Counted from the stretch's first letter, positions 10,141-64,000 are shown. The stretch: DNA of 64,000 nt from an uncultured Pseudomonadota bacterium (GCA_963807735.1 CAWEDI010000001.1:1-64000); one strand, 5' to 3'. Notes: generated by a model not told the origin, from the sequence alone. Program-made: numbers and translations.

Positions 10141-10633
10141 ATCAAAATTGGAACAAAGGGAATTTAGCGCCAGGAGTTCAAGTCGAAGATTTTCCGATCC
10201 TTGAAATTGTAGTGACTACTCTGCCGATTTAGTTAGCCGAGCCGGTGATAAATCATCTTCTCTCGGCAGGCGTGTTGACTGCGGTAGGTTGATCCCGGAT
10301 CAGGGGACGTTTTGACCGTAAACAGAAGTCCTTGGCTGCGCCGAATATTATTCGTCGGGTACTTCCGGATATGAACCTTCATGAGATTGTGATGCGACAT
10401 CAAACAGTGTTCTGCATATCAATATCCGGATTGGCGCCCTCTGTTCACGAGCGACTTTGGGTCGAGACAATGTACGGGAGGGTTTGCTACGGGAGAGGAA
10501 GTCGCCTTTAGGCAGCGGGAGCCGCCGCGCAGAGGCCGACAGAAGGGGCCTTCACCCTCCTTCTCCAACAAGTTGCAGCCAGGGACTCTTTCATGCCGTC
10601 CAATCTTTACAGATCGCGCGGAGGCGTAAACTC

Positions 10634-12104
10634 GTGAGCGCGAAAGGACAGTTGCGAGCGCCTTTGAAATCCGAGTCTTCGGGGTTTGACGATGTCTGGC
10701 GCCGGACCGCCGAGCGGCTGCGCCTGGCGTTGGGCGACAGCGTGTTCAATAGCTGGTTTGGCAGCGTCAGGGTCGAAGAGTTCGTCGCCGGACGGGTTCG
10801 TCTGTCGGTGTCGACCCGCTTCCTGAAGAGCTGGATCGAGAACCACTATCAGGAAAGATTGCTAGCGGCGCTTTCCGCGGAGCTAAAGGACGTGACTGCC
10901 GTCGAGGTTTTCGCGCGGACGATGCATCCCAACGCGGGACGTCCTGCTAACGGGGGCGCCGATACCGGGCGGAAGGGACCAGAGATCCTTGCCAACGACG
11001 TCGGTGCGACGGCGCCGGCGAGCCCCGTCGCCGCTCGCAAAGCCGAAAGCGTGGTGAAATCGCCCCTGGGATCACCACTTGATCGTCGGTTGACTTTCGC
11101 GACCTTCATCGGAGGGCGCGCCAACCAACTTGCGCTGTCGCTTGCCCGCAAACTGTCGGAAGGCCGAGACGCCGGCGCGAGCATGACGCCCCTGTACATT
11201 CATGCCGCGGTCGGACTCGGCAAGACCCATCTTTTGCAGGCGATCGCGCATTCTGCGTTAGCGCGGCATCAATCGGTCGTCTATCTCACAGCCGAAGCTT
11301 TTATGTATGGCTTCGTCAATGCGCTGCGCAACCATTCCGCCATCGCGTTCAAGGAATCGCTACGCACGATTGATCTGCTGATTTTCGACGACGCCCAGTT
11401 TCTGCAGGGGCGAGTGATTCAGAGCGAGTTTGGTCATGTCCTCAACTCGTTGATCGACGCGGGCCGACAGGTCGTTATCGCGGCCGATCGTCCGCCGTCG
11501 GACCTCGAGTTCGGTCGACGAGCGGGTGCGCTCGCGCTTGGCCGGCGGCATTTGCGTGGAAATGCTAGGTTTCGACGAAGCTCTGCGCCTACGAATCTTG
11601 GAGACGCGACTGGCCGTCGCCAAGCAATCGCATCCCGCGCTAGAGGTGCCGCGCGATGTGTTGGTCTTTATCGCAAGCTCCATTGTCTCCAACGGTCGCG
11701 ACCTTGAAGGCGCGATCAACCGGCTCGCCGCACACGCCCAACTCGGCGGCGCGCCGATGACGCTGGCGGCTGCGGAAGTCGCGGTGCGAGACCTGATCCG
11801 CACGCGCGAGCCCAAACGGGTCAAGATCGAGGAGATCCAAAAACGCGTCGCGCACCACTACAATGTCTCCCGCGCCGATCTGTTGTCGTCGCGTCGGACC
11901 GCGGCCGTCGTGATGCCCCGTCAAATCGCAATGTTTCTGGCGAAGACCCTGACCTTGCGTTCTCTCCCGGAGATCGGCCGACGGTTCGGCGGCCGGGATC
12001 ACACAACGGTGCTGCACGCGGTACGCAAGATCGACAATCTCTACAATAAGGACGCGACTTTGCGCGAGGAGCTAGAACTGCTGAAGCGTATGCTGCAGGA
12101 ATGA
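10634..12104 (+). CDS. dnaA: Chromosomal replication initiator DnaA, interrupted by an apparent 1-nt insertion near 11510
   Basis: The GTG at 10634 lies 9 nt after GGAGG (10620-10624). Walker A GLGKTHLL, and [11 protein letters not shown] in frame 1. Frame +1 (track ORF 11526..12104) continues with [12 protein letters not shown]..., the box VII/sensor region and domain IV ([13 protein letters not shown]). 1471 nt equals 490 codons plus 1 nt. Confidence 0.9.
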
Positions 12105-12108
12105 GATC

Positions 12109-13533: not shown

Positions 13534-13556
13534 CCGGGAGCGCCACGCGCTCCCGG
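13534..13556. terminator. Perfect 10-bp GC hairpin between convergent pyrD and fae (bidirectional terminator candidate)
   Basis: CCGGGAGCGC-CAC-GCGCTCCCGG. Confidence 0.5.
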
Positions 13557-13566
13557 CGCATGCGTC

Positions 13567-14076: not shown

Positions 14077-14246
14077 GCCATTCCTCCCTGCAATCAGACG
14101 GGCCTTCCGGCTCGGCAGATCTTTGCGACCCCGAACCGGCTATCCTTGTTGTCAGCGTCCCGCGAAACGCGGAACCGGTTGGCCGGATAGGCGCAACCTC
14201 GTGGATCGCGCGCGCCACTCAATCATTGTTGCGCGGGACCCGCAAG

Positions 14247-15083: not shown

Positions 15084-15958
15084 GATCCCGCCCCGCGCAA
15101 CACGTCGGCGGCAATCGCCTCGGCGATACAAGCGTCCGCAACTCTCTGTAGCCCGCGCCACGCCGGCATGCTGTTGACCTCCAGCACGCGCGGACCTTCG
15201 CGGCCGACGATGATGTCGACCCCGGCGATTTCGACGCCGACAGCGCGCGCGGCGGCGAGCGCCATCGCCTCGAGCCGCCCGTCGCGCGCCACCGGGAACG
15301 GCTCGCCGCCTTGTTTGACATTAGTGATCCATGTCGGCGCGCGCCGCATCATCGCCGCGACGACCCGCCCGCCAGAGATGAGCAGCCGGAAATCGCGGAA
15401 ATCCTCGCCCTCGACCGGCTCGAACCTTTGCAAGTAATAAACACCCGCGACCGCATCCGGGCGCGGCAAATCGTCGACGGCGCGCAGGAGGCGCAATCCC
15501 TTGCCCTGTGCGCCGAACAATGGCTTCAGAACCAAGGGTCCGCGCTCAATTTCCCGACGCACGAGCGCATGCGCTGCGTCAAAGGATTCCAGCGTCCAGG
15601 TGTCGGGCGTCGGAATCCCGGCGCGTGCGACGAGAAAGCTCGTCATCGACTTGTCGACGCAGGCCTCAATTCCGCGGGGCGCGTTGACGACACGCACGCC
15701 GAGGCGGTCTAGTGCATGGAGTATCCCAAGCCGACGCGTAATCGCCTCGAAACTTCCCGCCGACATGGTGCGAACGTGCACGGCGTCGGGCAACGCGGCG
15801 AACCCCGGCAGCGCAAGCCCGGTCGGACTCGCGGTCGCAAAGTCGCACACCGCAAGATCGAGTCGGATGACGACCGCGCCCTTCGCGGCGTAAGCCTCCT
15901 CCATGCGCCGCGCATGCCAGTCGCGCGTCTCGCTGACGAGCAAGATTCGTTTCGCCAC
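15080..15958 (-). CDS. RimK-family ATP-grasp ligase (H4MPT:alpha-L-glutamate ligase-like, Orf5/MptN-type)
   Basis: 292 aa ATP-grasp fold (LVLKPLFGAQGKGL, VLEVNSMPAW). Sits in the H4MPT gene context. Confidence 0.8.
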   Translation of the reverse strand: MAKRILLVSETRDWHARRMEEAYAAKGAVVIRLDLAVCDFATASPTGLALPGFAALPDAVHVRTMSAGSFEAITRRLGILHALDRLGVRVVNAPRGIEACVDKSMTSFLVARAGIPTPDTWTLESFDAAHALVRREIERGPLVLKPLFGAQGKGLRLLRAVDDLPRPDAVAGVYYLQRFEPVEGEDFRDFRLLISGGRVVAAMMRRAPTWITNVKQGGEPFPVARDGRLEAMALAAARAVGVEIAGVDIIVGREGPRVLEVNSMPAWRGLQRVADACIAEAIAADVLRGAGS

Positions 15959-15962
15959 GGGC

Positions 15963-16934
15963 TCAGCCCAAGGAGGCGTCGAGCAACGCCTCGTCGATAG
16001 CTCCGGAGCGGAAGGTCGCGCCCGATTCGACTGCGGTTACCAGGGTCTGCGCCGGGCTGAACAGCATCGGATCAATGGCGTAGAAATCCCCGTTGAACCG
16101 CTTGAAGATTTCGCGGAACGGCGAGCCATAGTCGCGGGAGGCGCGGCTCGGCAAGGCTTCGGCCAGCTCCCTTGCCTCGTCGGCAGGCCCGGTGACGAAC
16201 AAATGCACCCGGCCGCCATAAATAATTGCGTCGTTGGTGCGGCCCATCGCGGTCATGAAATCGGGATGCGGAGGCGAGAGTGGCGCGGCGCCGAAGCCGT
16301 CGACGATTCGCGCCAGTGGAAACTTCAGGGCGTGAGCCTTGTGCAGTGCGACTTCCAAGACGCGCGCGACAACCTGCACGCTGCCGGCAATGCTCTGCGT
16401 CGGCGCGAAGATTACGGTGAGAGCAGACGGCGGCAAACCACATTCGGCGGCGATCTTGGCCACGACCTCCGCCGGCGGCGCCCGTCCGCTCTCGATGACC
16501 AGCGTCGTCTGCGCGGCGGCGTCGCGATAGCCGATCTCTTCGAACAGCGGCTCCTTTCGCGCCAACGACCGCGCCGGCCCCGACCCCAAGGCGAAAAAGG
16601 CGCCGCGTCCCTCGCCATGTGAAAGACTCCAGCCGGCGTATTGACTTGCCAAGCAGGCAATCACTGGCTGCGAAGAGCGCACGCCAATCGTCCACGGCCA
16701 ACGCCGAATAGTGCCGTCGGACGTCAGCGAAACTTCGCCCAGCCCGCCGAGGCAAATTTTTGCAATCGTTAGGCCGGCCTCGACGCCGCCGCGGCGCTTG
16801 GCGCCGGCGTCGATCAGGGTTTCGCCGAGCTTGCCGGTCTCGATACTGACCTCCATCCGCGCAGCCTCGGCGCGCAACAGCTCTGCCCAAGGCGCTGAGC
16901 TGGTGTTGACACTGATTTGTGACGCGCCGCTCAT
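15963..16934 (-). CDS. mch: Methenyl-tetrahydromethanopterin cyclohydrolase
   Basis: Start moved to the ATG at 16934 (ATGA overlap with the upstream gene). Motifs IACLASQYAGW and FALGSGPAR. Confidence 0.9.
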   Translation of the reverse strand: MSGASQISVNTSSAPWAELLRAEAARMEVSIETGKLGETLIDAGAKRRGGVEAGLTIAKICLGGLGEVSLTSDGTIRRWPWTIGVRSSQPVIACLASQYAGWSLSHGEGRGAFFALGSGPARSLARKEPLFEEIGYRDAAAQTTLVIESGRAPPAEVVAKIAAECGLPPSALTVIFAPTQSIAGSVQVVARVLEVALHKAHALKFPLARIVDGFGAAPLSPPHPDFMTAMGRTNDAIIYGGRVHLFVTGPADEARELAEALPSRASRDYGSPFREIFKRFNGDFYAIDPMLFSPAQTLVTAVESGATFRSGAIDEALLDASLG

Positions 16935-18037
16935 AGGGCGTCCCCCCGTAGCCAGGATTGGATGCGCGTGGATCGCTCTTTCATGGTCGCTTTCGCTTCC
17001 GTGACCGTGGCGCCGCTCGCCGAAACCGTGCAGATCGGCGCGCCCGCTTGGATACGTGAGCCGCGCGCGGGGCGGTCGGCGACCCAATCCGGCCAATCCG
17101 CAGGCGGCGCGATGGCGTCAACCGAAGCGTAGACGATCTCCGCAGCCTTTGGCCGCCGCGGTTTTGGCGGCGCCGCGGCGCGATGTGCGAGCGCATCGAT
17201 GTGTCGTGTCAGCAACGGGTCCGCTGCGTCGTCGAATAGATCCAAGGTGGCGCCGGGGCGCGGATTGACCTCTAACAGCCACCAAGTCTCGCCGTCATCG
17301 ATAAAATCCGCGCTCGCCAGACCCCGGACACCGAGCGATTCCGTGAGCGCCGCAAGCTCCTGCATAAGGCGATCCGGTGGAGACGGGTCCACCGGACCGG
17401 CCGCGCCGCCGTAACGGAAAGGGGTACTTGCGCAGGGCGAAGTCCATTGTTCGCTCCACGCGATAGGCGTCAGTTCCCGGGAATCGCGAGCGAATAGTAA
17501 CGAGACTGCGCGGCCGCGCTTCCGCCGCTGCCAATATTCGCGGGCGCCGAGCGACCGTTCCGGCGAGCCTTCGGCGATATGCAGGCCGCCGGAGCCGCCG
17601 CTCCGTTTAACGACCCAATCTACAGGCGATTCTGGCGAGGCGAAACGTATCTCGGGATGCGAAATTCCAGCCCTCGCGCAAGCCTCAGAGAAGATTCGCG
17701 GATTCTTCGTCCGCGCCAGCGCCTCCGGCGTCGATCCGAACAACGGCAAGACCGCGCCGAGTTGAGCAAGGCGCTGTGGGCAATCATCGAAGCCCGATCC
17801 GTAAACGAGTCCTAGGAGAGCGTGATCGCGGTTCAGACTCGCGACGACAGGTGCGAGGTCGACCTCAGCGAATCCTCCCAAGGCGTTCTCCATTATGCTC
17901 GTCGCTCGACACGCTGAGCACGTATCCTCATCGCCGAAGGCGTCGATCGCAACCGACGCATAACCGGCCCGCCGCGCGGATGCGACGAGGGCGCGCGCCG
18001 AAATGGCGACAATAAGTAAAGCGTGCGCCTCAGTCAC
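16931..18037 (-). CDS. ATP-grasp protein of the H4MPT-linked C1 pathway (OrfY/COG2232-type carboligase-like)
   Basis: WVVKRSGGSGGLHI and WWLLEVNPRPGATL. The start is uncertain: GTG 18037 was chosen, and the track start 18151 would add an Arg/Pro-rich extension. Confidence 0.7.
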   Translation of the reverse strand: MTEAHALLIVAISARALVASARRAGYASVAIDAFGDEDTCSACRATSIMENALGGFAEVDLAPVVASLNRDHALLGLVYGSGFDDCPQRLAQLGAVLPLFGSTPEALARTKNPRIFSEACARAGISHPEIRFASPESPVDWVVKRSGGSGGLHIAEGSPERSLGAREYWQRRKRGRAVSLLFARDSRELTPIAWSEQWTSPCASTPFRYGGAAGPVDPSPPDRLMQELAALTESLGVRGLASADFIDDGETWWLLEVNPRPGATLDLFDDAADPLLTRHIDALAHRAAAPPKPRRPKAAEIVYASVDAIAPPADWPDWVADRPARGSRIQAGAPICTVSASGATVTEAKATMKERSTRIQSWLRGDAL

Positions 18038-43304: not shown

Positions 43305-44291
43305 TCAGCCGACTTTGACGGTCCGTCCGGTCTTCCATGATTGATAGGCCGCGTCGGCGAGGAGCAGCGCCTGAAGGCCGTCATGACCGCTCGGCTTTGT
43401 TTCTTGTCCCGACTTCACGGCCATTACGAACGCGTTCAGTTCACTTCGGTACGCCGCGTCATAACGCTCGAGGAAGAAATTGAGGGCTTTGTCCGCAGTA
43501 TAGCCTTGAGCACCGGCGTGCTCAACGGTCGTCTCGCGCACGTTTCCGGCGGCGACCATGCCCGTCGAGCCATGCACCTCGGCTCGCTGGTCATAGCCAT
43601 AGCTGGCTCGGCGGGAGTTGGAGATCTCGCATACCTTACCCGATTTGGTTTGCAGGAGCACTACCGCCGTATCGACATCGCCCGCCTCGCCAATGGCGGG
43701 GTCCACCAGAGAGGCGCCAAAAGCGGACACGGCGACCGGTTCCTCGCCAAGCAGAAACCGCGCCATGTCGAAATCGTGGATCATCATGTCGCGGAACAGG
43801 CCGCCCGATCGTTCGATATAGGAGACCGGCGGCGGCGAAGGGTCGCGAGAAGTAATCTGGACGATCTCCACTTCGCCAACGGCTCCCTGCGCGATCCGCT
43901 TTTGCAAACTCGCGAAATTTGGGTCGAAACGACGGTTGAAGCCGATCATCAGCTTAGCCTTGTGCGCCCTTACCACTTCGAGGCACGCGCGTACCCGGTC
44001 AGTCGAGAGGTCGACAGGCTTCTCGCAAAATATCGCTTTGCCAGCCTTGGCGCAGCGCTCGATCAGGTCGGCGTGGGTGTCCGTCGGAGAGCAGATCGCC
44101 ACAGCGTCAATGTCTTTTGCTGCTATGATGTCTTCGATAGAGCCAACTTTGCCGCCCGTCGCAGCCGCCAACGCCGTTGACGCGCCAGCGTCGGCGTCGG
44201 CCACAAGCAGCACAGAACAGTCCACATGCTTCGCGATATTGCTGCCGTGGATCTTACCAATACGCCCTGCTCCGATCACCCCGAATCGCAT
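43305..44291 (-). CDS. Gfo/Idh/MocA oxidoreductase (inositol 2-dehydrogenase-like)
   Basis: MRFGVIGAGRIGKIH..., FCEKPV. Confidence 0.8.
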   Translation of the reverse strand: MRFGVIGAGRIGKIHGSNIAKHVDCSVLLVADADAGASTALAAATGGKVGSIEDIIAAKDIDAVAICSPTDTHADLIERCAKAGKAIFCEKPVDLSTDRVRACLEVVRAHKAKLMIGFNRRFDPNFASLQKRIAQGAVGEVEIVQITSRDPSPPPVSYIERSGGLFRDMMIHDFDMARFLLGEEPVAVSAFGASLVDPAIGEAGDVDTAVVLLQTKSGKVCEISNSRRASYGYDQRAEVHGSTGMVAAGNVRETTVEHAGAQGYTADKALNFFLERYDAAYRSELNAFVMAVKSGQETKPSGHDGLQALLLADAAYQSWKTGRTVKVG

Positions 44292-52801: not shown

Positions 52802-53633
52802 GCCCTACTCCCCTGCTTCGCGTTTGGCGGTCGCCGGTAACACGGCGACCCAGCGTCGACAAGCGTCGCCCTTAGACGCTCCGGCGAGCGGCCATTGGTG
52901 CAATGCGGTATTTGAATCGCCAAGCGAGTCGCCTCTCCGATTGCGGCGAGTCCCAGCGCTTCGGCGTCAATCAAATAGGCCTCACGCCACTAGACTCGAG
53001 TTACCTTGGTCGCGTTGGGGACTCAGGAACGATACGGAAAGCCGGACGCCAAACGTAGGCAATTCGACCTCGGTGTACGAGATGCACCATCGGTCCATGG
53101 GATTTGAGGGTCGCGAATACATTTCTGTGTGCGGGACCATTGCAACGCCCTGCCTTTTAAAATGGTCATTATTCGTTAAGCGATAGGCAACCGTCGCGCA
53201 AATTTCAATTTCGGGACAAGGCGTAGCCGTGAGTTTCGTCGCACCGGCTTCAGGCAGTTGTGCGCCGGCCTAATCTTAGAGTCCGATATTTTTGCGACTT
53301 TAAGCCCCAATTCGATTCGTTGCATATCTCGTGACGATAATATTGTGATTGATCGACGATCTAAAATATCGAGATGGCGTAAAGTTGTTTTACAAAAAAT
53401 TCAATATACATCAACGTAAATAGATTATATGCAACTGATATCGCTGTTAACAATATTATAATACGTTACGTAATACAGAATCGACAATTTGACCAATGTA
53501 CAATTCGTGATGGACGTAACGTAATCTTGCCTATCCAAAATAAATCTGTATCCCCGAGCGATCGGCGGCGAAGCATCGAAGTGATTCGCGCGCGGCTGCG
53601 CCGTCTTGGATGTGAGCGCCCTGGGGGTTCGCG

Positions 53634-56600
53634 ATGACGTCTTTCATTAGTTCGCTGTCGAATGCGCAGATCGCCAACCTGTCGACCACGACAATGGCGA
53701 GTCTAAAAACTACTGACATCACTGCGTTGACGGCCGGTCAGGTCGGGGCGTTGAGCGGCACCCAGCTTAGCGCGCTGACAACAACTGCCGAAGCTGCTTT
53801 GACTACGTCGCAGATTACCGGCTTCTCGACGCAGGCGGCGCCTTCGCTCTCCATGGCGATGATCTTAGCGCTCGCCAATACGCAGGCCGACGCAATGACG
53901 GCGACAGTGCTCGGCGCGTTAAGCACGACCAACATCAACGCCCTGACGAGTACGGAGTTGCAGGGTCTTACGTCCGCGCAGGTTAACGGCTTCAACTCGA
54001 CACAGATCGCCGGAATGACGACGACGACCCTCGGCAATTTGGGGACGACGCTGCTTGGCGACCTCAACGCTGGTCAAGTCAAAGGCCTGACGACAACGCA
54101 GATCAACACGACCACGACAACGGCCCTCAACGCAATCAACGCTGTGAACTTCTCGTCCACGCAAATCGCCGGCCTATCGACGACCACCCTTAACAACCTG
54201 TCTACGTCCCAGGCCTCGGCGCTAACCAGCGCGCAGGCGTCGGCGCTCTCGACAGCCGACCTGACCGCGTTGACTTCCACCAATCTGCGTGCGCTTAGCA
54301 ATTCCGCGATTACCGGCATCTCGCCCACCAACATAAGTCAACTAACGACGACGACGCTGAGCAACTTATCAACTACCCAGCTCGCCGGATTGACGACGTT
54401 GCAGGTCAGGGGATTGACGACAAATCAAATCAATGCCAGTCCCACGACCGTTCTCAATGCGCTCAATGCAGCGTATATATCATCCTCGCAGATTGCTGGT
54501 CTTACAACGACCGCGCTCAATAACTTCACGACTTCGCAGCTCGCCGCACTGACGAGTGCGGCGGTTAGCGCTCTCAACGGCACGGACGCCAACGCGCTCA
54601 CTTCGACCAATTTGCAGGCGCTCACCACGACAGCGGACCTGGGCTTAACCTCGACGACTTTGTCCGGCATGACGACGACCGCGCTTGGAAATTTCTCCAG
54701 CACCGAACTTAGCCTGCTCACAAGCACCCAGGTGCAGGGACTAACGTCCACGCAGCTAAATTCGATCAGTACGACGACGCTCGCCGCACTCAACGTCGCA
54801 ACTTTGTCGAGCACGCAAATCACGGGCCTGACGACAACGACACTAAACAACATATCAACGACGCAAATCGGCGTGTTGACCAGTAAACAATCCGCCTCGT
54901 TGACCTCCTCGGAACTCAACGCTCTGAGCTCGACCAACGTTCATGCGCTGTCGGCGACGGGACTTGCGGGCCTTACCACGACGGCACTGTCCGGTCTAAC
55001 GACGACAGCGCTCAGCAATTTCGCGACGACGCAATTTTCGCTGCTCTCTACTGCACAGGTGAAGGGCCTATCAACAACACAGTTGAACTCCGCGACGACG
55101 ACCGTGCTCAACGCGCTCAACGCGGCGAGCCTGTCCAGCACCCAGATCGCCGGACTCACAACAACGACGCTGCTAAACGTGACGACCGCGCAATTCAATG
55201 CGTTGACCGCAACTCAAGCCTCGGCGCTCGCATCGACCGGTCTTAACGCCCTTACGTCGACCGACGTCCAAGCTCTTAGCACGACTGCGGTTGCTGGCTT
55301 GGCGACAGCGAGCCTCAGCGGCGTGACGACCACGGCGCTATCGAACCTGACTTCGTCGCAGGTAGCCACACTGACTTCGTCGCAAATTCAGAGTCTGACA
55401 ACTACGCAACTCAACGCAGCGACGACCACCGTACTTGGCGAGTTCAACGCCTCCAATTTGTCGAGCACACAAATCGGCGGATTGGCCACGACGACGTTCA
55501 ACAATTTGACGTCGACACAGTTTAGCTCGCTTGCCAGCCGGCAGTTAAACGCATTGACTTCGACGGAGCTCAACGCGGTAACCTCGACTAACATACGCGC
55601 CCTTGCCGTGACCGCCCTCGGCGGCATCACGACGTCCACGCTCGCTGCCGCGACTACAACCGCAGTCGCGAACTTCTCGACCACGCAACTAGGCGCACTT
55701 ACGTCGTCTCAGGTACAGGGTCTCACCTCAACGCAGTTGAATACGGTCACGTCGACTTCGCTCAACGCTCTCAACGCGGCGAACCTGTCGGCGGCGCAGA
55801 TCGCGAATCTTTCGACGACGGCCACCAATCTCTTGACGACTGCGCAGATTGGTTCGCTTACGAGCAAACAGACATCCGGGCTTACTTCAACAAGTCTCAA
55901 TGCTCTGACCTCAACGAACGCGCAAGCGCTAACGTCCTCGGCGATTGCCGGTATAACCTCGACGGTCGTGGCCGCGTTGAGCACAACGACGCTCAACGCG
56001 ATTACGACGACTCAGGTTGCGGCGCTAACGGCGACACAAGCTGATGCGCTATCCTCGAACGCAACTCTCGGGTCTAACCACAACGCAGCTCGGAGCGCTC
56101 AACGCCGCGAAATTCACGTCGACGCAATTCGGCGCGCTCACGACCACCACCCTTAACGCGCTCACAACAACGCAGCTCAGTTCGTTGGCGAGCAGTGGCG
56201 TAGCGGGTCTGACTTCAACCGAGCTGAACGCGCTCACCTCGACGAATCTGCGAGCGCTCACCAATACGTCCCTACCCGGTATTACTTCGACAGCCCTTGC
56301 GGGCGCCACGACGACAACTCTCTCGAATTTCAGCACTTCTCAATTGGCGGCGCTCAATAGTACGCAGGTGCAGAGCCTGACGACAACGCAGCTGACTGCG
56401 GCGACGACTACGTCGCTTAACGCTCTAAACGCCGCCTATCTATCCGCGACGCAACTATCCGGCTTTACTACAACTGCTGCAAACGCTCTCACAACTTCGC
56501 AGCTCGGCGTCCTAACGAGCAAACAGACCTCTGGACTAACGTCTACCGATTTGAATGCATTGACCTCCACCAACCTGCAAGCGATCACAACCTCTGCGAT

Positions 56601-59600
56601 CGTCGGCTTCACCACTAGCGCGGTGGCCGCGTTGGCCTCCACGGCGCTTAACGGTCTAACGACGACGCAGGTAGCCGCGTTGACGACCTCGCAACTTGAC
56701 GCGCTTTCCACGACGCAGCTTGCTGGCGTGACGACAACAAATCTTGCCGCAATAAGTGCGTCGAAGTTGACCTCGGCGCAGATCGGCACCCTGACGACCA
56801 CGACATTTAATGCTTTGACGACGACGCAAATGGGGTCGCTGACCAGCGCAGAAATCGCCGGCCTTGCCTCGACTGATCTCAATGCGTTGAGCTCGACGAA
56901 CCTGCAGGCGCTCACTACTAGCGCCCTCGCTGGCTTGAGCACCACGGCTGTCGCCGGTGCGACGACGACGGCGCTTGCCGTCTTCTCCACGACTCAACTG
57001 GCGTCGCTCAGCACAACCCAAGTAGAGGCTCTAACCACAACGCAGTTGACGACGGGAACCAGCACCGCCCTCAACGCGCTTGCTGCGGCCAAGTTATCTT
57101 CAACGCAGCTTGGCGGACTCACGACGACGACCGCGAATGCCCTCACTACTACGCAGATGGCTGCGCTGACGAGCAAACAGACCGTCGGTTTGACTTCGAC
57201 CGTGCTTAACGCGCTGACTTCGACAAACCTTCAGGCGCTTACAACGACTTCGGTGGTCGGTCTAGCAAGCACGGTTATCGGCGCGCTCGCCTCGACCGCG
57301 CTCAATGCGTTGACTACGATCCAAATTGCGTCGCTAAATTCCACCCAGCTGGATGCTCTTTCGTCCACGCAGCTCAGCGGGTTGACCACGACCAATCTCG
57401 GTGCTGTCGGCGCCGCGAAGCTGACGTCAACGCAAGTAGGCGCGCTGACCTCAACCACGCTTAATGCGCTGACGACGACGCAGGCAGGGTCCTTGACCAG
57501 TGCGGAGTTAGGCGGCCTCACCTCGAGCGAGCTCAACGCCCTTACCTCGACCAATTTGCAGGTGCTGGCGACGACGGCGCTTGCCAATCTTTCCACGACG
57601 GCGATCTCTGGGGCGACGACCACTGCGCTTGGTCTGTTCACGACGACGCAGCTCGGCGCGTTGACCACGTCGCAGATCCAAGCCCTGTCGACGGGCCAGC
57701 TTACCACCGTGACCTCGACTGCGCTGAACGCTTTGAACGCAGCGCGATTGTCAAGCACTCAGCTGTCAGGATTCACTACAACGGCGGCGAATGCCCTGAC
57801 GACGACGCAGATCGCGGCACTAAGCAGCGGCCAGGTTGCAGGGCTCACATCCACCGTCGCAAACGCCTTGACCTCGACGAATCTTCAAGCGCTCAACACC
57901 TCGGCGCTTGCCGGGCTTACGAGCACCGTCGCCGGGGCGCTTACGTCAACCTCGCTCAACGCTCTTGCGACGACGCAACTCGCAACGTTGAACGCAACGC
58001 AGCTCAACGCTCTTTCGTCGACCCAATTCAGCGGTCTTACTACGACGAACCTGGACTCCTTGGCGGCGGCGAAGCTGACCTCGACACAGATCAATTCTTT
58101 GACATCCACTACGCTCAATGCTCTGACAACAACACAGGTTGCGGCGCTGACGAGCGGCGAGATCTCGGGTATGACTTCGGTTGAGCTTAATGCGTTGACG
58201 TCGACCAATTTGCAGTCCCTCACCACGTCCGCGCTGACCGGTCTATCGTCGAACGCTCTTGTCGGCGCCACTACGACGGCGCTCGCGGTATTCACAACGA
58301 CGCAGCTCGGTGCGCTGACAACAAGCCAAATCCAGAGTCTGACGACATCGCAACTCAACACGGTGACTTCTACCGTGCTCAATGCGCTCGAGGTCGCGAG
58401 GTTGTCGACCACACAAGTGTCGGGTTTGACGACGACAGCGGCGCTGGCGATGACGACAACGCAGCTTGGGACGCTGACGAGCACAGAGGTGGGCGCGCTC
58501 ACGACTACGGACCTCAATGCCCTGAGTTCGACCGATTTGCAGACTCTGACGTCTACCGCGCTTGGTGGTATCACCTCCACAGCGGTATCTGGCTTGACGA
58601 CAACCACGCTGAACAATCTGACGACGACGCAACTGGGCCTACTGAACACTACGCAGGTTCAGGCGCTCGCGACGACGCAGCTTGGCCTCATCACGACGAC
58701 GCAGCTGGGCGCTATCACCGCCTCGAAGTTGTCTTCGACGCAAGTCAGCGGTTTGACGACGACAACACTGCAGTCCTTCACGTCAAGCCAATTGAACGCA
58801 CTATCGGGGACCGAGGTTGCCGCATTGAGCGCCACCGATCTCAATGCGATGACCTCGACGGACCTGCAGGCGTTATCGAGCACGGGCGCGTCGGGCCTAA
58901 CGACAGCCGCGCTTTCCGGCGCCACGACCACTGCGCTGACCAACTTCACCACAACTCAGCTTAATGCGCTGACGGCCACGCAGGTGCAAAGCCTGACGAC
59001 TTCTCAGCTTGACCTCATTGCTTCGACGGCGCTCGAGGCGCTCAACGCCGCAAGGCTCACGAGCACGCAGATTGGTGGTCTATCGACCACCGCGCTTAAT
59101 GCACTTTCGACTACGCAAGTCTCCGGCCTGTCCAACTCGCAAGTTCCACTTATGAGCTCGGCGTCGATCGGAGCTCTTACCTCGACCAACTTGCAGGCGT
59201 TGTCGACGACGGCGATTGGAGGCTTGGCGCCGACGACGGTTGCGCAGCTCACCACGACGGCGCTCAGCAATTTCACAACGACGCAGTTGGGCGCGCTGTC
59301 GTCGGCGCAGATCCAAAGCCTTTCTGCGAACCAGCTCAATTCCGCGACGACCACGGTGCTTAACGCCGTGAATGCAGCGCAGTTCAGCACGACCCAGGTC
59401 GGCGGTCTGACGACGACGGCGCTCAACGCTCTGACGACAACGAATCTTGCGGGCTTTACGTCAGCGGAATCGTCGGCCTTGTCTGCAGCGGCTGTTAACG
59501 CGATGACATCGACCAACTTACAGACGTTGAGCACCTCGGCGCTTGATGGTTTGACAACCGCGGCGTTGTCGGGGGCGACCACCACGGCGCTCAGCAACTT

Positions 59601-60177
59601 CACGACCACTCAGCTCGCCTCGCTTTCGAACGCACAGGTCCAGTCGCTTGGCGCGAGTCAGCTCGGTGCGGTAACAACGACTGCGCTCAACGCTTTGAAC
59701 GCCGCAAGCCTGTCGAGCACACAGCTTGGCTCACTGACCACGACTGCGATCAACAACCTTAGTGCGACACAGCTGAGCGGCCTCGTGTCCTCTCAGCTGT
59801 CTGGTTTAAGCGCGGCGGACGTCAACGCCCTGACGTCGACGAACCTGCATGCCTTGGCGACGGCCGCAATATCGGGCCTTGCGACGAGCATAATCAGCAG
59901 CCTGACGACGACGTCTCTGGGCAACTTCAACGCCGTACAGGTCAACGCCCTATCAGGAGCGCAGATTCAATCCTTTGGTGCAAGCCAACTCAACTCTATC
60001 ACCTCGACAGTGCTGCAACAGCTGGACGTAACGCAGCTTTCGACCTCGCAAATCTCTGGCTTAACGACCACGACGATTGGAAACATGACATCAACTCAAG
60101 GCAACGCCCTGACTAACACGCAAGTGCAAGCCATGAACAGCGCGCAACTCACCGCTCTGCAGACGCTAGTCGGTTAG
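53634..60177 (+). CDS. Giant Thr/Ser/Leu/Ala/Asn/Gln octad-repeat protein. It would be ~2180 aa if the single +1 frameshift at ~56058 is ignored. No recognisable N-terminal signal peptide.
   Basis: Track ORFs 53634..56156 and 56044..60177 carry the same repeat. The repeat register continues from ...TATQADALSS (ends 56057) into TQLSGLTTTQLGALNAAKF (from 56059). 2424 nt + 1 nt + 4119 nt equals 2181 codons when one base is removed. Confidence 0.8.
53700..60150 (+). repeat. Coding tandem repeat: 24-nt (8-aa, xTxTxLxAL-type) periodicity nested in ~327/654-nt (about 109/218-aa) higher-order repeats
   Basis: Hand-parsed copy: GATTTALAVF...LSTTAIS is 218 aa, made of 24 octads plus two 13-residue AAKLxSTQxGxL elements. 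Successive copies start with GATTTAL(A/G/S/T)xF. Confidence 0.8.
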
Positions 60178-60296: not shown

Positions 60297-62360
60297 ATGC
60301 TGCGGCAAAGCCAATTCGAAGGGCAGTCCCTCGTTTCTCCCGCCGAGTTGGAGAGTTACGGCTTCTACCAGAGCTGGAGCGCCGGCGATCTCCTTACGCA
60401 CGCCGAACGTTTCAACGCTGACGGCGCCTCGAACGTCGCCGCCGCGCTGTATAAGAATTGGATCGCCGCCAACCCTCGTCACGATTTTTTGCATGCCGCC
60501 TACTTTAACTACAGTTTTTCGCTGGCGAAGGCGGGCGATCGACTTGGAGCGATCGCCGCCGCTCGTGAGTGCCAGCGGCTGAAGCCGGATTTCTTCCCCA
60601 TTTATGTCAATCTCGGACGGCTTCTCGAAGACGCCGGCCAACTCGCCGAAGCGATCGAACAATGGCGGTCGATGATCGAACATCTGCCTCAAATTCGTGG
60701 CGAGACGATACGGAACAAACTCACTGCGCTTGAACAAATGGCGCGCGTTCTTGAGGCGCACGACATCGACGGGCCGGGCGAGGAGGCGTTGCGGCTTTCG
60801 CTCGATATTTCCATTCATCAACCCGCTGTGATCCAGCATTACATTGCATTGCGGCAACGCCAATGCAAATGGCCCGTTGTTCAGGGGTGGGATGGCGTCA
60901 AGACGGAAGCCCTGATGTCGGACATTTCGCCGCTTTCGATTGCCAATTTGTCCAACGACCCGCTATTCCAGTTCGCGCGCTCAGCGACCTATTATCGAGA
61001 GCTTGTCGGTCCGAGACCGAGCCAAGTCGAGATCCCAGCGCCGCCCGCGGCGATGGATCGCAAGCCGGGGCGCTTGCGCATCGGATACGTATCTTCCGAT
61101 CTTCGGGAGCACGCCGTCGGCTTTGCAATGACTGACGTGCTGGAGACACACGACAAAAACAATTTCGAGATCTTCGCGTATTACTGCGGGATCGCTCGTG
61201 ATGACGGTATCAAACAGCGGTGCCGAAGCGCTGCAGATCAATGGATCGACATCAACGAACTTAGCGATGAGGAGGCGGCTCGGCGAATACGGGCCGACGA
61301 TGTTGATATTCTCGTCGATTTAAACGGCTTTACCAAGAGCGCGCGGACAAAGGTCCTCTCATTTCGCCCGGCGCCCGTGATCGTCAATTGGTTTGGTTTT
61401 CCCGGTACTATGGGTTCGCCGGATCATCACTATCTGATCGCCGACTCCCGGGTCATTCCGCCTGAAGCCGAGCGCTTTTACACAGAGAAGGTTGTGCGGC
61501 TCTCTTGTTACCAACCGAACGACCGTAAACGCATCGTCGCCGCCCCGTCTAGTCGCGCGGGCGAGGGATTGCCAGACGACGCATTTGTGTTCTGCTCGCT
61601 CAACGGTCCGCAAAAGTTTACACCGAGCATTTTTTCAAGCTGGATGGGGATACTCAGTGCGGTGCCCAACAGCGTCATGTGGTTGTTCGGCGGCGCGGGC
61701 GACACCAACGACCGCTTGCGGGCATTTGCGCGCGCAGCCAACGTTGCGTCGGAGCGACTCATTTTTGCAGAGAAGAAGGCTAACCCGCATCACGTGGCGC
61801 GCTACGCGCTGGCGGATTTGTTCCTCGATACGTTTCCTTATGGCTCGCACACGACAGCCGCCGATTCGCTCTGGATGGGCCTGCCGGTCGTCACGTTCTC
61901 TGGCCGCACCTTTGCCTCGCGGGTCTGTGCAAGTCTTTTGCATGCCGCTGGAATTGGAGAGTTGGCATGCGCGTCGCGCGAACAATACGTTGAAACTGCT
62001 GTCGCCCTAGCGAAAGATCGCCACGCCCTTAAGCTTCTGAGACAACGGCTTGTCGAGAATCGTGACAAGTGCCGGTTGTTCGATACGCCGACGTTGGTCC
62101 GAGAATTGGAGGAAGCCTACCGCGGTATGCACGAGGACTATAAGGTCGGCCGACTTCCGATCCCTAATCTAATCAATATCGGCTACTACCACGAGATCGG
62201 CGTTGCGCTCAGTGCAGGAGAGTTAAATGATGACGCCTATCTGGGCGTCTACACGCACGAACTCGCGCGACGGGATGCGATCACTCCCATACCGAGGGAC
62301 GGGCGGGCTTGGGACGGGCGGCCGGGCAAAAAAAGTTCCCAGCTGAACTTTTTTTCTTAA
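60297..62360 (+). CDS. TPR-domain + GT41 (O-GlcNAc transferase/SPINDLY-type) protein glycosyltransferase
   Basis: N-terminal TPR-like helices (LYKNWIAANP..., CQRLKPDFFPIYVNLGRLLEDAGQLAEAIEQW). C-terminal GT41 motifs: RIGYVSSDLREHAVG, VDLNGFT, FCSLNGPQKFTP, PNSVMWLFGG, LADLFLDTFPYGSHTTAADSLWMGLPVVTFSGRTFASRV. Confidence 0.85.
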   Translation: MLRQSQFEGQSLVSPAELESYGFYQSWSAGDLLTHAERFNADGASNVAAALYKNWIAANPRHDFLHAAYFNYSFSLAKAGDRLGAIAAARECQRLKPDFFPIYVNLGRLLEDAGQLAEAIEQWRSMIEHLPQIRGETIRNKLTALEQMARVLEAHDIDGPGEEALRLSLDISIHQPAVIQHYIALRQRQCKWPVVQGWDGVKTEALMSDISPLSIANLSNDPLFQFARSATYYRELVGPRPSQVEIPAPPAAMDRKPGRLRIGYVSSDLREHAVGFAMTDVLETHDKNNFEIFAYYCGIARDDGIKQRCRSAADQWIDINELSDEEAARRIRADDVDILVDLNGFTKSARTKVLSFRPAPVIVNWFGFPGTMGSPDHHYLIADSRVIPPEAERFYTEKVVRLSCYQPNDRKRIVAAPSSRAGEGLPDDAFVFCSLNGPQKFTPSIFSSWMGILSAVPNSVMWLFGGAGDTNDRLRAFARAANVASERLIFAEKKANPHHVARYALADLFLDTFPYGSHTTAADSLWMGLPVVTFSGRTFASRVCASLLHAAGIGELACASREQYVETAVALAKDRHALKLLRQRLVENRDKCRLFDTPTLVRELEEAYRGMHEDYKVGRLPIPNLINIGYYHEIGVALSAGELNDDAYLGVYTHELARRDAITPIPRDGRAWDGRPGKKSSQLNFFS

Positions 62361-62455
62361 AGCGGCTTGCGTTTTTTGCAACGCAATGTATCTTATTGCT
62401 GTGCGGCGCCAGTCGCCGCATATGCCCTCCTTGGGCGTTTCCTCCCTTAACTCGG

Positions 62456-62491
62456 GGCCGCTGTCTTACGATAGCGGCCTCCTTTTATTTT
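62456..62491 (+). terminator. Rho-independent terminator after the GT41 gene
   Basis: GGCCGCT-GTCTTACGAT-AGCGGCC followed by TCCTTTTATTTT. Confidence 0.6.
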
Positions 62492-62508
62492 CAGTCAAAT
62501 TTTCTCGT

Positions 62509-63576
62509 TCATCCTAGCGTGACAACGCGCCCCGTTCGGATGCTTTCGTCCGCCGCGAGGACGATCCGAAGCGAATCAATCGCCGCCCGGACATGTTCGG
62601 TTGTATCCTCTTTCTCGCGGATGGCTTTTAGAAAGGCTCGCTGCTCGCGATTGCAAAGCTCCTGATGCCCCGGCTCGTCATCCATGCGTAGAATCTCGTC
62701 GCGCTTTGCAAAGCGCCCATCCGGCCCGACAGCGGCGTGGTGCAATCGTAGAGCGCTGGTTTTTGTGTGCGAGTCAATGTCGGAAGATTCCGTCTTGCTC
62801 TCGTCGACGGCGATCGAAACGGCACCCTTGGGGCCAATCATGTCTTTCACGAAGAAGGCAGTTTGGCTCATCATCGGTCCCCAGCCGGCCTCGTACCAGC
62901 CGATGGAGTCGTCATCGAAAGCGACTTGGAGACAACCATAATTGTACATTGCGGGCGACACTTCGTCCGATAACCGCGCGCCGAGCGCATGGACCCGCAA
63001 TGGCCGCGCGCCCGTCACTTGACACATCACGTCGACGTAATGGACGCCACAGTCGACGATCGGACTGACCGTTTCCATGAGCTTCTTGTGAGTCGTCCAT
63101 TCTGCTCCGAGCGACTGTTGATTAAGGTTCATCCGCAACACCAGCGGCTTCCCGAGCGTACGGCCGATCTCTACGAATTTCTTCCAGGAAGGGTGCACGC
63201 GGAGGATATAGCCGATCGTCAAACTTCGGCTCCTCGCGATCGCGAGCGCCGCGATAGACTCCGCTTCCGCCACCGTTTGGGCGAGCGGCTTTTCGATAAA
63301 GACATGAGCGTCCGCCTCTAGGGCGGCTCGCGCGAACGAAGCATGTGTGTCAGGCCACGTGTTGATGGAGACGGCTTCGGGCTTTGTCGCCGCTAAAGCC
63401 GCTGCGAAGTCGTCGAAGCGCGGCACGCCCCGAAACTCAGCCTCAACGTCGGGCCGTCGGTAAATGTCGCGGCTGCACAAGCCGACGATTTCGAAACCCT
63501 CGATTTCCTTATAGGCGCGCGCGTGGCTGAGCCCCATGTTGCCAAGACCAACGACGAGTATGCGGACGTTCTGCAT
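62509..63576 (-). CDS. Gfo/Idh/MocA family oxidoreductase
   Basis: VRILVVGLGNMGLSHA, FIEKPLA. Start at ATG 63576 or 63588. Confidence 0.85.
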   Translation of the reverse strand: MQNVRILVVGLGNMGLSHARAYKEIEGFEIVGLCSRDIYRRPDVEAEFRGVPRFDDFAAALAATKPEAVSINTWPDTHASFARAALEADAHVFIEKPLAQTVAEAESIAALAIARSRSLTIGYILRVHPSWKKFVEIGRTLGKPLVLRMNLNQQSLGAEWTTHKKLMETVSPIVDCGVHYVDVMCQVTGARPLRVHALGARLSDEVSPAMYNYGCLQVAFDDDSIGWYEAGWGPMMSQTAFFVKDMIGPKGAVSIAVDESKTESSDIDSHTKTSALRLHHAAVGPDGRFAKRDEILRMDDEPGHQELCNREQRAFLKAIREKEDTTEHVRAAIDSLRIVLAADESIRTGRVVTLG

Positions 63577-64000
63577 AATTGACCTCACGCGTTGAACAGG
63601 CCAGATTTGATACAGGCTTTCGAGGCTTGTTGAGCGCCGTCACGTGGGGCTCATTCGCATCTATCCATGGCATGCGCTACATCGTCAGCACTTTACGCAT
63701 TTGCGTGAACATGTTCGGTCATCGGTGCATTTGAGAGGGACGTCTTCTACGATTTATAGAAGTCGTCGACTTCGAGAACTCGCACAAGCTATCAGGTTTT
63801 TTTTATAGAGAACAAGGCCCAGCGGCTGGCGAGCTTAGGAGTTCGATCCCCGCTCGAGAACCAAGACCTCACCAGCGCTAATCTGCTAGACGCCCCAAAT
63901 AGCTCGTTGATATAGACGTATTTTGGGCGGTACGCATGACTTATCTTCAGCAACACGGACCCGTAGTACTTGTTCGCGGTCCTGGGTCGATCTTCGTTGA

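Follow-up and report, generated by a model that had tools for sequence, protein, structure and literature searches.

A giant ALTTAQ-repeat protein and its OGT-type GT41 partner: a candidate O-glycosylated alpha-solenoid fibre system in an uncultured Pseudomonadota bacterium

What is a giant, threonine-rich and almost uncharged repeat protein, and what might it do for the bacterium that encodes it? This question is raised by about 6.5 kb of DNA within the window (the whole stretch analysed, 64,000 nucleotides from an uncultured Pseudomonadota bacterium, GCA_963807735.1 CAWEDI010000001.1:1-64000; Table 1). The original prediction had described this region as one motif class that is near charge-free, lacks Cys and Trp and repeats hierarchically at 8, 109 and 218 residues, and both composition and periodicity bear this out. 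It had also read the region as a single coding frame, which the DNA as sequenced does not provide, as there are two overlapping ORFs in different frames. Removing one base yields a protein of 2,180 aa, exactly 20 x 109, made of 10 units of 218 aa and about 272 octads. The repaired protein is rich in T, L, A and S (23.8, 16.6, 15.2 and 13.3%, respectively; Thr+Ser 37%), with D+E+K+R at 2.75% and no Cys or Trp at all. Its self-identity peaks at lags of 8 (0.34), 109 (0.51) and 218 (0.58) and is only 0.16 at lags 108 and 110, and the 109-aa units (n=20) align without any indel. Each unit comprises 12 octads and one 13-residue element ('LNAAkLSSTQIgG'), with 'GATTTAL..F' marking every second unit, an anatomy that agrees with the earlier count of 24 octads plus two 13-residue elements per 218-aa super-repeat starting at GATTTAL..F.

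Table 1. Positions of the repeat gene, its partner and associated features, counted from the first nucleotide of the window.
Feature	Coordinates	Strand	Basis
ALTTAQ-repeat gene	53634..60177	+	ORF reading, periodicity, Pfam PF20080
Conserved N-terminal octads, MTSFISSLSNAQIANLSTTTMASLKTTDITAL...	53634..53795	+	family consensus MsiissLT..QIAgLSTTaI..LtTTDiaaL
Conserved C-terminal octads, ...MTSTQGNALTNTQVQAMNSAQLTALQTLVG	60040..60174	+	family consensus LstTQgNAFTttQI.aMs.dQl.ALvtlvg
Upstream non-coding region: AT-rich (about 53270-53560), then 5' leader	53270..53633	+	sequence reading
TPR + GT41 glycosyltransferase, 687 aa	60297..62360	+	Pfam, homology to OGT/SPINDLY
ORF 1 as sequenced, 840 aa; final roughly 33 residues out-of-frame	53634..56156	+	
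ORF 2 as sequenced, 1377 aa; same array carried on in +1 frame	56044..60177	+	
Frameshift site, extra A in TCGAAC (S-T-Q expected)	56055..56060	+	paralogous-site comparison

The protein had seemed by eye to belong to no characterised family, and here the profile searches disagreed: Pfam PF20080 (ALTTAQ_rpt; gathering score 26.4) matched the first half in 23 stretches (E 9.4e-62, 204.8 bits) and the second half in 35 (E 6.1e-107, 349.4 bits). No other Pfam family rose above threshold, leaving RTX, Ig, cadherin and haemagglutinin modules absent as had been stated, and the RTX nonapeptide model PF00353 (HemolysinCabind) gave no match at E up to 1. A leucine-rich repeat protein was rejected as well (LRR_EndoS 22.4 bits against a cut-off of 27.9, no stretch passing; model all-helical). 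The repeat protein is covered by no NCBIfam family, and a homology search of a large protein collection with ORF 2 returned relatives only at 23-41% identity. Neither the GT41 product nor any of six ortholog sequences has an entry in that collection. A profile match to a family of known function had been named as grounds against an undescribed protein; the family match stands and the known function does not, and the objection holds halfway only because PF20080 is catalogued without characterised function or structure. Most PF20080 members listed carry additional modules (calpain, C39, TPS, RTX, Ig-like), and elsewhere giant secreted proteins combine ALTTAQ arrays with TPS, RTX, Ig-like, cadherin and Calx-beta modules; the present subfamily consists of repeats alone, shows conserved N- and C-termini of its own and is the sole one seen with a GT41 partner. 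ALTTAQ-only giants that have no GT41 neighbour are the Verrucomicrobiota proteins P0001, P0033 and P0016 and a protein of 2,264 aa encoded on a Shinella plasmid, which bears the annotation 'hypothetical protein' (1156 bits to PF20080). A faint Pfam Mesothelin match is on record for P0001.

How such a sequence might fold can be read from its octads, whose consensus is L-T-(T/S)-T-Q-(L/V/I)-x-(A/G). An AlphaFold2 model of 436 aa, with the protein's own repeats as input alignment (pLDDT 89.8, pTM 0.75), has one helix per octad, each of 4-7 residues (mostly 5-6) and starting after the N-cap Thr, and the last 327 residues, a different segment modelled from the single sequence, gave the same pattern at pLDDT 77.9, although four of the five models in that run were poor. 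Strands are absent from both predicted models, and the second has a longer terminal helix at 316-326 of its 327 residues. The solenoid that had been guessed thus survives as a predicted architecture, a long all-alpha rod with a register break of 5 residues every 109 residues; the beta-helix with Thr ladders does not, and a heptad coiled coil fits as poorly as had been argued, given the period of 8 and short predicted helices broken in each octad. On the models, a hydrophobic staple (N' and N4) plus a capping box (T at N-cap, Q at N3) can be recognised in the octad L-T-T-T-Q-L-x-A, and the octad profile follows this pattern: N' is hydrophobic in 96%, T/S occupy N-cap, N1 and N2 in 84, 85 and 82%, N3 is Q in 38% and A in 23%, and N4 is L/V/I in 87%. 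Thr is favoured at the helix N-cap and at N1/N2, and since the octad profile and these capping rules explain much of the Thr richness, the water-ordering role that had been offered for it is not required. The N-cap Thr would be structurally engaged, which may limit the accessible acceptor sites and weighs against the glycosylation proposed below. Foldseek searches of the PDB with both models found no significant match (TM 0.2-0.47, E 1e-3 or worse). The closest solved folds are the Mesothelin/ARM-like alpha-solenoids, which are likewise superhelices built from short helices; chains of Mesothelin come up repeatedly in the match list at probability 0.9-1.0, but their repeats are far longer than 8 residues and their TM-scores against the ALTTAQ models are low.

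The neighbouring gene encodes what its sequence indicates is an OGT/SPINDLY-type GT41 enzyme, a putative O-glycosyltransferase. The GT41 domain matches PF13844 at E 1.5e-78 (264.9 bits against a cut-off of 25), and the enzyme matches human OGT (E 3.5e-81), XcOGT (E 3.3e-79) and SPINDLY (E 5e-55). TPR models were matched at residues 62-154, each below its gathering score (best TPR_2, 24.5 bits against 27), and this region aligns to the hOGT TPRs. Alignment to hOGT and XcOGT revealed that the motifs LNGPQKFTP (catalytic Lys), SHTTAAD (with the H-T-T..D that binds the UDP phosphates) and HHVARY are kept, including the equivalents of hOGT K842, H901/R904 and H920-T921-T922-D925. The layout suggested here, a putative TPR region ahead of the GT41 domain, is that of human OGT, Xanthomonas XcOGT and Arabidopsis SPY; the window enzyme departs from them in its short and weakly matching TPR region, in having Gly at the Q839 equivalent, and in being tied to a single Thr-rich giant encoded beside it instead of serving many proteins. 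An enzyme of the HMW1C/NGT type was rejected (NCBIfam NGTferase 20.8 bits against a cut-off of 1000; AaNGT E 2.9e-4 over ~90 residues), and because the enzyme is OGT-type rather than NGT-type, HMW1C-type N-glycosylation of the 34 NxS/T sequons in the ALTTAQ protein was rejected too. Neither a signal peptide nor a transmembrane segment is visible by eye in the enzyme, which looks soluble and cytoplasmic.

Does the association of these two genes extend beyond the window? We compared 80 loci with GT41 relatives at 50-83% identity, 78 of them assessable and 2 not, and 77 of the 78 have an ALTTAQ gene directly flanking the GT41 gene and sharing its strand in every case (directly upstream in 73, directly downstream in 4, absent in 1), which confirms that the octad-repeat and GT41 pairing recurs. 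Among the loci are those of Roseiarcus, Methylosinus, Methylocystis, Methylocapsa, Hyphomicrobium, Methylobacterium/Methylorubrum, Pseudolabrys, Lichenihabitans, Aestuariivirga, Acetobacteraceae and Hyphomonadaceae, and in one genome the pair is found twice, at separate places (L028 and L050). Cys is almost wholly missing from the orthologs, and their lengths among close relatives differ by whole units (1388/1497/1606 aa; 953/1171 aa). Locus annotation and BLAST queries, as distinct from flanking-ORF clustering, which alone showed no third conserved gene, placed an SDR nucleotide-sugar epimerase/dehydratase beside the pair in 23/80 loci and an HlyB-type ABC protein with an HlyD-type adaptor (TIGR01843, 291 and 275 bits; cut-off 209) in 9/80; two loci also have an FkbM methyltransferase. 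Because SDR sugar enzymes adjoin the pair in those 23 loci, the donor sugar may be other than plain UDP-GlcNAc. The statement that no T1SS lies nearby therefore stands for the window and fails for the orthologous pairs with HlyB/HlyD-type neighbours; in the window, the large ORFs scanned are housekeeping genes and include no T1SS, flagellar or autotransporter gene, the last as the original prediction had it, and tblastn likewise found no T1SS gene there. The window also has a Gfo/Idh/MocA oxidoreductase gene downstream of GT41, which was rejected as a component of the system and read as synteny, because it is conserved in the closest relatives only. Upstream of the pair, secB ends at 52801 on the opposite strand, and the upstream non-coding region (Table 1) likely holds the promoter of a two-gene unit; it contains one sigma-70-like match (53435-53462, 10 of 12), although shuffled sequence would be expected to yield no fewer matches of this kind.

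The ends of the repeat protein are conserved across an alignment of 39 proteins (the window protein and 38 orthologs), from which the terminal consensuses in Table 1 derive. We suggest that the N-terminal octads are a candidate solenoid cap, TPR docking site or export signal and that the C-terminal octads are a candidate T1SS signal or C-terminal solenoid cap, though both termini could be merely caps. The C-terminal motif is also found in orthologs adjoining HlyB/HlyD genes.

Glycosyltransferases encoded beside an exported substrate follow a known logic, seen in FlmG-flagellin (Caulobacter), HMW1C-HMW1 (Haemophilus) and GtfA/B-serine-rich repeat adhesins (Gram-positives). In these systems, a soluble glycosyltransferase modifies a large Ser/Thr- or sequon-rich protein before export. 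FlmG binds flagellins through its TPR domain, and its GT domain adds sugar to them in the cytoplasm ahead of their export (PMC7591256), a use of TPRs for substrate recognition such as we propose for the window enzyme. The present pair differs from all three in substrate fold and candidate export route (T1SS), and from each in particulars: flagellin domains are missing from the ALTTAQ protein, the enzyme is not of HMW1C/NGT type and has no TpsB partner, and the SecA2/Y2 partner of the GtfA/B adhesins is absent. The giant T1SS repeat adhesins and S-layer proteins LapA, SiiE, MpIBP and RsaA are likewise very large, Cys-free, repeat-built and devoid of an N-terminal signal peptide (for the ALTTAQ protein, as judged by eye), and HlyB/HlyD-type genes adjoin the orthologous pair in 9 loci, but the ALTTAQ protein is without their RTX nonapeptides, Ig-like/beta-rich repeats and retention module and is predicted to be alpha-helical; a cytoplasmic glycosyltransferase partner is not known from systems of that type. 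Literature searches on ALTTAQ, bacterial GT41/TPR, threonine-rich OGT substrates, COG3914/SPINDLY and T1SS O-glycosylation returned nothing on this system.

Because the ALTTAQ/GT41 pair recurs, in at least 77 alphaproteobacterial species, the ALTTAQ protein is probably an undescribed sugar-coated fibre. Our best explanation, to which we give about an even chance, is a cytoplasmically O-glycosylated alpha-solenoid fibre protein that is possibly exported by a T1SS; glycosylation, export and function are what we infer here, and with them the repeat protein as the enzyme's substrate, its sugar, export route, extracellular location and role. The ALTTAQ and GT41 genes would act as a two-gene unit, each octad of the product folding as one very short helix and the helices stacking into an all-alpha solenoid rod. 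The soluble TPR + GT41 enzyme would recognise this protein in the cytoplasm and O-glycosylate many exposed Ser/Thr at octad positions N1 and N2, with an adjacent SDR nucleotide-sugar enzyme sometimes tailoring the donor sugar in other lineages. Export of the glycoprotein would proceed without a cleaved signal peptide, most likely through a T1SS reading the conserved C-terminus. Outside the cell the product would be hydrated and mucin-like, forming a fibre on the surface or part of a matrix, with the number of 109-aa units fixing its length. More tentatively, and with rather more doubt than belief, we put forward that the pair represents a widespread undescribed protein-glycosylation system in which a bacterial OGT-type GT41 would for the first time have a natural substrate dedicated to it. 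That substrate would be of a new architecture, a solenoid of ~270 helices of one and a half turns, each closed by a capping box and hydrophobic staple; heavily O-glycosylated in the cytoplasm and exported by a T1SS, it would form a mucin-like fibre on methanotrophs, methylotrophs and other soil/peat Hyphomicrobiales.

XcOGT has served as the structural model for human OGT, yet few natural substrates are known for bacterial homologues of OGT. If the enzyme-substrate pair is real, TPR-GT41 substrate recognition becomes directly testable in cultivable methylotrophs and methanotrophs. Hyphomicrobiales of environmental importance may have in the ALTTAQ protein an unrecognised major component of their surface or matrix. 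Units of 8 residues defined by helix N-capping would be a possible new repeat architecture with no solved counterpart, which could aid repeat-protein design. Should T1SS export hold, the protein would be an unusual pre-glycosylated T1SS substrate; no precedent is known for a cytoplasmically O-glycosylated one.

Other roles were weighed against this fibre. Eukaryotic OGT modifies nucleocytoplasmic proteins, and the ALTTAQ protein might in the same way be modified by its OGT-type partner and never leave the cell, serving as a giant alpha-solenoid scaffold in the cytoplasm (cytoskeletal, polar or storage-like), a reading that we consider unlikely. It would suit a soluble-looking cytoplasmic enzyme, a repeat protein in which no signal peptide is visible (judged by eye only), termini explicable as solenoid caps and the absence of adjoining secretion genes from the window and from most orthologous loci (about 70/80), but T1SS genes do adjoin the pair in 9 loci, ALTTAQ arrays elsewhere lie within TPS-, RTX-, Ig- or cadherin-module proteins, and near-zero charge, near-zero Cys and whole-unit copy-number variation are typical of surface fibres. 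We think it very unlikely that the protein is instead a flagellum-associated substrate, exported by the flagellar type III apparatus after glycosylation by an FlmG-like TPR-glycosyltransferase. FlmG, itself of TPR+GT make-up, does act on flagellins before they are exported, msrB-flgE-flgK-flgL follow the pair on the same strand in about 15 loci, and flagellar axial proteins share a T/S/A/Q/N/L-rich composition, a lack of Cys and Trp and an uncleaved N-terminus; that linkage, however, is restricted to one MAG clade, with neither the window nor most lineages showing it, Flagellin_N/C, Flg_bb_rod and hook domains gave no match even at E up to 1, the carriers Methylocystis, Methylocapsa and Roseiarcus are described as non-motile, and the T1SS-linked loci indicate a different route. 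An ice-binding, antifreeze or water-ordering (glyco)protein, which the original prediction had also raised, seems to us highly improbable even though Thr/Ser rows fill three consecutive octad positions, the partner is of O-glycosyltransferase type, fish antifreeze glycoproteins are Ala-Ala-Thr repeats with an O-linked sugar, and several carrier genomes are named as coming from peat/bog metagenomes (e.g., SPRUCE and bog MAGs). Helix capping already accounts for the Thr pattern, and the protein bears no sequence or fold relation to ice-nucleation or beta-solenoid antifreeze proteins: ALTTAQ is the sole Pfam family, the predicted fold is all-alpha with no strands, and the period-8 L-T-T-T-Q-L consensus is not the GYGS type, whose absence had been correctly noted.

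There is also a very small probability, in our estimate, that the locus is a dead pseudogene or repeat-assembly artefact yielding no functional giant protein in the source organism. The frame is broken, into two ORFs, by a single extra A at 56057/8 in 'TCG AAC GCA A', where paralogous sites read 'TCG ACC CAA' or 'TCC ACG CAG', and relatives from long-read metagenome-assembled genomes (MAGs) include fragmented ALTTAQ copies. This is the sole disruption in 6.5 kb, however, with 1377 codons open downstream in perfect 109-residue register, and the extra A is probably a sequencing indel because the essential gene dnaA, in the same window, is frameshifted as well, a sign that the assembly contains indel errors. 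We also considered phase variation or programmed frameshifting at 56057 and set both aside, since the site is neither slippery nor homopolymeric and dnaA shares the defect. Nor is the array an assembly artefact, an objection that had been foreseen, or a product of chance: DNA-level tandem repeats are nearly absent (Tandem Repeats Finder reported just two small 24-nt arrays), the gene has no exact repeat of >=20 nt able to mislead an assembler, and its 109-aa units have diverged to 54-67% nucleotide identity. Between units pS is about 0.70 (near saturation) and pN 0.17-0.35; the array is old and under purifying selection. Dozens of genomes hold an intact ortholog (e.g., L002, L011, L023 and L027).

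Both ORF halves of the repeat gene match Pfam PF20080, the 'ALTTAQ repeat' (E 9.4e-62 over 23 stretches and E 6.1e-107 over 35 stretches), with no other Pfam family above threshold in either half and no matching NCBIfam model. The original prediction could not assign the protein to a characterised family by eye; the Pfam run now places it in one that is already catalogued and itself uncharacterised, the term 'ALTTAQ' having been found in no paper by our literature search. The best relatives in a large protein collection are just 23-41 % identical, and their ALTTAQ arrays are often fused to a TPS/haemagglutination domain, RTX, Peptidase_M10_C, Ig-like, cadherin or Calx-beta modules, or to calpain or C39 proteases. 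TPS, RTX, Ig-like and other such fused modules are typical of secreted giant proteins.

As sequenced, the roughly 6.5 kb expected to encode one motif class does so, albeit in two overlapping ORFs in different frames, with the octad repeat running uninterrupted across their junction. This junction reads GCG CTA TCC TCG AAC GCA ACT, and the paralogous sites read ...TCG TCC ACG CAG CTC and ...TCG TCG ACC CAA TTC, coding A-L-S-S-T-Q-L/F; because they spell S-T-Q without an extra base, one extra A at 56057/8 disrupts the frame. Removing it yields a protein of 2,180 aa without internal stop, exactly 20 x 109 residues, composed mainly of T (23.8 %), L (16.6 %), A (15.2 %), S (13.3 %), Q (6.8 %) and N (6.6 %), with 2.75 % D+E+K+R and no Cys or Trp over its full length. 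Shifted against itself, the protein reaches an identity of 0.58 at a lag of 218 residues, 0.51 at 109 and 0.34 at 8, against just 0.16 at 108 or 110. All 20 units stack indel-free in 109-residue rows, each comprising 12 octads and one 13-residue element (LNAAkLSSTQIgG), a layout that bears out the predicted nesting of 8, ~109 and ~218 residues with its 218-aa super-repeat; the 218 period arises because alternate units are slightly unlike.

Features of the window (coordinates, strand and main attributes)
Feature	Coordinates	Strand	Remarks
ORF 1 of repeat gene	53634..56156	+	840 aa; frame differs from ORF 2
ORF 2 of repeat gene	56044..60177	+	1377 aa; overlaps ORF 1
TPR + GT41 gene	60297..62360	+	687 aa; PF13844 E 1.5e-78
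dnaA part 1	10457..11707	+	DnaA_N and most of ATPase domain, then out-of-frame sequence
dnaA part 2	11526..12104	+	other frame; domain IV and the remainder of domain III
mmgR/suhB alphaproteobacterial sRNA (Rfam RF00519)	62417-62495	+	59.2 bits vs gathering score 41
Terminator-like hairpin, strong, within RF00519 match	62454-62481
Gfo/Idh/MocA-family oxidoreductase	62509-63588	-
Gfo/Idh/MocA-family oxidoreductase	43305-44291	-
Gfo/Idh/MocA-family oxidoreductase	921-1982	-
AT-rich stretch upstream of repeat gene	53270-53560		~300 bp, markedly AT-rich; surrounding region 55-60 % GC

To evaluate the fold, units 9-12 (436 aa) were modelled with AlphaFold2 using an alignment of 13 internal segments of the same protein, giving pLDDT 89.8 and pTM 0.75. 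Secondary structure in this model is strictly periodic, each octad forming a single helix 4-7 residues long (in most cases 5-6) followed by 2-3 non-helical residues, with the 13-residue element as the sole irregularity. When the last 327 aa were run through AlphaFold2 as a single sequence, the top model (pLDDT 77.9) repeated this helix pattern and added a longer terminal helix; the other four models were poor. Foldseek searches of the PDB with both models returned nothing significant (best E 1e-3 and 7.3e-4, TM <=0.47), mesothelin and armadillo-type alpha-solenoids being weak resemblances. We consider it very likely that the repeat protein is a real alpha-solenoid protein.

Profiling 239 octads, we found position 1 to be Leu in 71 % (hydrophobic in 96 %), positions 2, 3 and 4 to be T/S in 84, 85 and 82 %, position 5 to be Q, A, N or E (38, 23, 9 and 5 %), position 6 L/V/I in 87 %, position 7 small polar and position 8 A/G in 68 %. 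Since the predicted helix begins immediately after position 2, this residue would be the N-cap, with position 5 as N3, position 1 as N' and position 6 as N4. In classical helix capping, an (S/T)-x-x-(E/Q) capping box is combined with an N'/N4 hydrophobic staple. The octad as modelled fits both, so that neither beta structure nor ice binding is called for to explain why hydrophobic residues are spaced 5+3 and why much of the protein is Thr. The earlier guess of a beta-helix with Thr ladders, or of an ice-type Thr array, gives way to all-alpha models with one short helix per octad, in which much of the Thr is accounted for by capping.

The downstream gene encodes an O-glycosyltransferase-type enzyme by sequence, with weak Pfam TPR matches at its N-terminus and human OGT (E 3.5e-81), Xanthomonas XcOGT (E 3.3e-79) and Arabidopsis SPINDLY (E 5e-55) as closest solved relatives. 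Its catalytic Lys is kept, as are the H-T-T..D and H..R motifs; neither a signal peptide nor a membrane segment can be seen in the protein, and the enzyme is probably active and cytoplasmic. An HMW1C-like N-glycosyltransferase identity was rejected, similarity being marginal (E 2.9e-4; NCBIfam 20.8 bits vs a cut-off of 1000). The sRNA match begins 57 nt past the GT41 stop codon. The Gfo/Idh/MocA gene beside GT41 is probably synteny outside the system, because its conservation is confined to the closest relatives (L003, L075).

With the GT41 protein as query against a single genome from each species, 80 loci were recovered at 50-83 % identity, all from Alphaproteobacteria (mostly Hyphomicrobiales, some Acetobacteraceae, Hyphomonadaceae and Stellaceae; the closest Roseiarcus-like), in which ALTTAQ genes were detected by an HMM of the 109-aa unit. 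The pairing, whose recurrence was to be checked, does recur: GT41 is immediately preceded by a large same-strand ALTTAQ ORF in 73 loci and immediately followed by one in 4, making 77 of the 78 assessable loci; the other two were left out of the assessment as GT41 sits at a contig edge. The one locus lacking an adjacent ALTTAQ ORF (L074) is a second GT41 copy on a MAG contig that also carries a complete pair (L036). Orthologs share an N-terminal (MsiissLT..QIAgLSTTaI..LtTTDiaaL) and a C-terminal consensus (LstTQgNAFTttQI.aMs.dQl.ALvtlvg), between which length varies by lineage from about 630 to 2,730 aa. Super-repeat periods are mostly 109/218/327, with 103, 105/210, 106, 110, 112, 162/324 and 192/384 also found, and lengths of near relatives are quantised, differing by whole units (1388/1497/1606 aa; 953/1171 aa) in exact multiples of 109. 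Internal units are 90-98 % identical in some ortholog genomes (recent expansion) versus 51-58 % in the window (old array), and one Lichenihabitans contig carries two complete pairs (L028, L050) with periods of 210/315 and 105/210.

We interpret a dedicated glycosylation pair as the most economical reading. The TPR-GT41 enzyme would O-glycosylate exposed Ser/Thr of the solenoid in the cytoplasm. The product would leave the cell with no signal peptide cleaved off, type I secretion (T1SS) reading the conserved C-terminus being the most plausible route, and would build a hydrated surface fibre or matrix; the number of units would set its length. The enzyme-substrate partnership seems likely to us, T1SS export has about an even chance, and the surface-fibre role is more tentative still. 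By analogy, FlmG-flagellin (PMC7591256), HMW1C-HMW1 and GtfA/B-serine-rich adhesins follow like logic of a dedicated glycosyltransferase and its exported substrate. Such pairs are already known as a kind of system, as is the ALTTAQ repeat type from Pfam. Three things appear undescribed in the literature searched: the tie between an OGT-type GT41 and a giant ALTTAQ protein made of repeats only, the solenoid of capping-box helices as predicted, which lacks a solved counterpart, and the T1SS and sugar-enzyme associations of the pair.

Third components recur near other pairs; none lies within the window and none is universal among the 80 loci. HlyB-type ABC permease/ATPase and HlyD-type adaptor genes (TIGR01843, 291 and 275 bits vs a cut-off of 208.65) abut the pair in 9/80 loci, in the single-strand order ABC-MFP-ALTTAQ-GT41 in Methylobacterium and Methylorubrum, and these T1SS-linked orthologs share the C-terminal motif of the window protein. 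That the protein is a flagellar export substrate seems unlikely; msrB-flgE-flgK-flgL follows the pair on the same strand in about 15 loci, all of one uncultured alphaproteobacterial MAG clade (L012, L013, L016, L019, L066, L069, L070 and relatives, about 12000-17700; the last gene flagellin-N-domain, flgL-like). The protein may, less probably than export, stay inside the cell as a scaffold, where the GT41 enzyme probably resides; the secreted-type modules fused to other ALTTAQ arrays point outward. An ice-binding or antifreeze glycoprotein, drawing on the same Thr-rich arrays, is improbable, and ice binding is not needed where capping box and staple account for much of the Thr. A nucleotide-sugar epimerase/dehydratase of the NAD-dependent SDR family lies <=605 nt from the pair in 23/80 loci of several lineages, on either side, and an FkbM methyltransferase occurs at two of the 80.

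The frameshift raises a pseudogene as a further rival, which seems unlikely. The repeat gene has no exact DNA repeats >=20 nt, its units are 54-67 % identical in nucleotides with pS ~0.70 (near saturation) and pN 0.17-0.35, and Tandem Repeats Finder reports only two 24-nt mini-arrays; we therefore reject a collapsed or inflated assembly and conclude that this is an old array kept by purifying selection on the protein under strict length constraint. The extra A is probably a sequencing indel, because dnaA (10457-12104, +) is likewise frameshift-split, which indicates indel errors in the assembly since this gene is essential, because copies are fragmented in several related long-read metagenome-assembled genomes (L003, L058, L026, L007, L078), and because an unbroken ortholog of 2,588 aa exists in Roseiarcus sp. 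(L002).

Outside these orthologs, other ALTTAQ giants (Verrucomicrobiota P0001, P0033, P0016 and a Shinella plasmid protein) have no GT41 neighbour. P0033 consists solely of ALTTAQ repeats (1,526 aa) and is encoded on a metagenome contig of 242 kb (L082), in what looks like a phage or virus setting of YqaJ exonuclease, DNA ligase, DUF5764 and many ORFs without a Pfam match on record. The Shinella sp. HZN7 protein (plasmid pShin-01, L084, 8350-15144; WP_064333005.1, 2,264-aa 'hypothetical protein') scores 1156 bits over 75 ALTTAQ stretches, with a glycosyltransferase, a methyltransferase and a caspase+Sel1/TPR protein 3-7 kb upstream. The window pair itself sits amid housekeeping genes (maf, coaE, dnaQ and secB upstream; dnaA about 42 kb away), and the AT-rich stretch preceding it may represent a promoter that is regulated or bound by a xenogeneic silencer.
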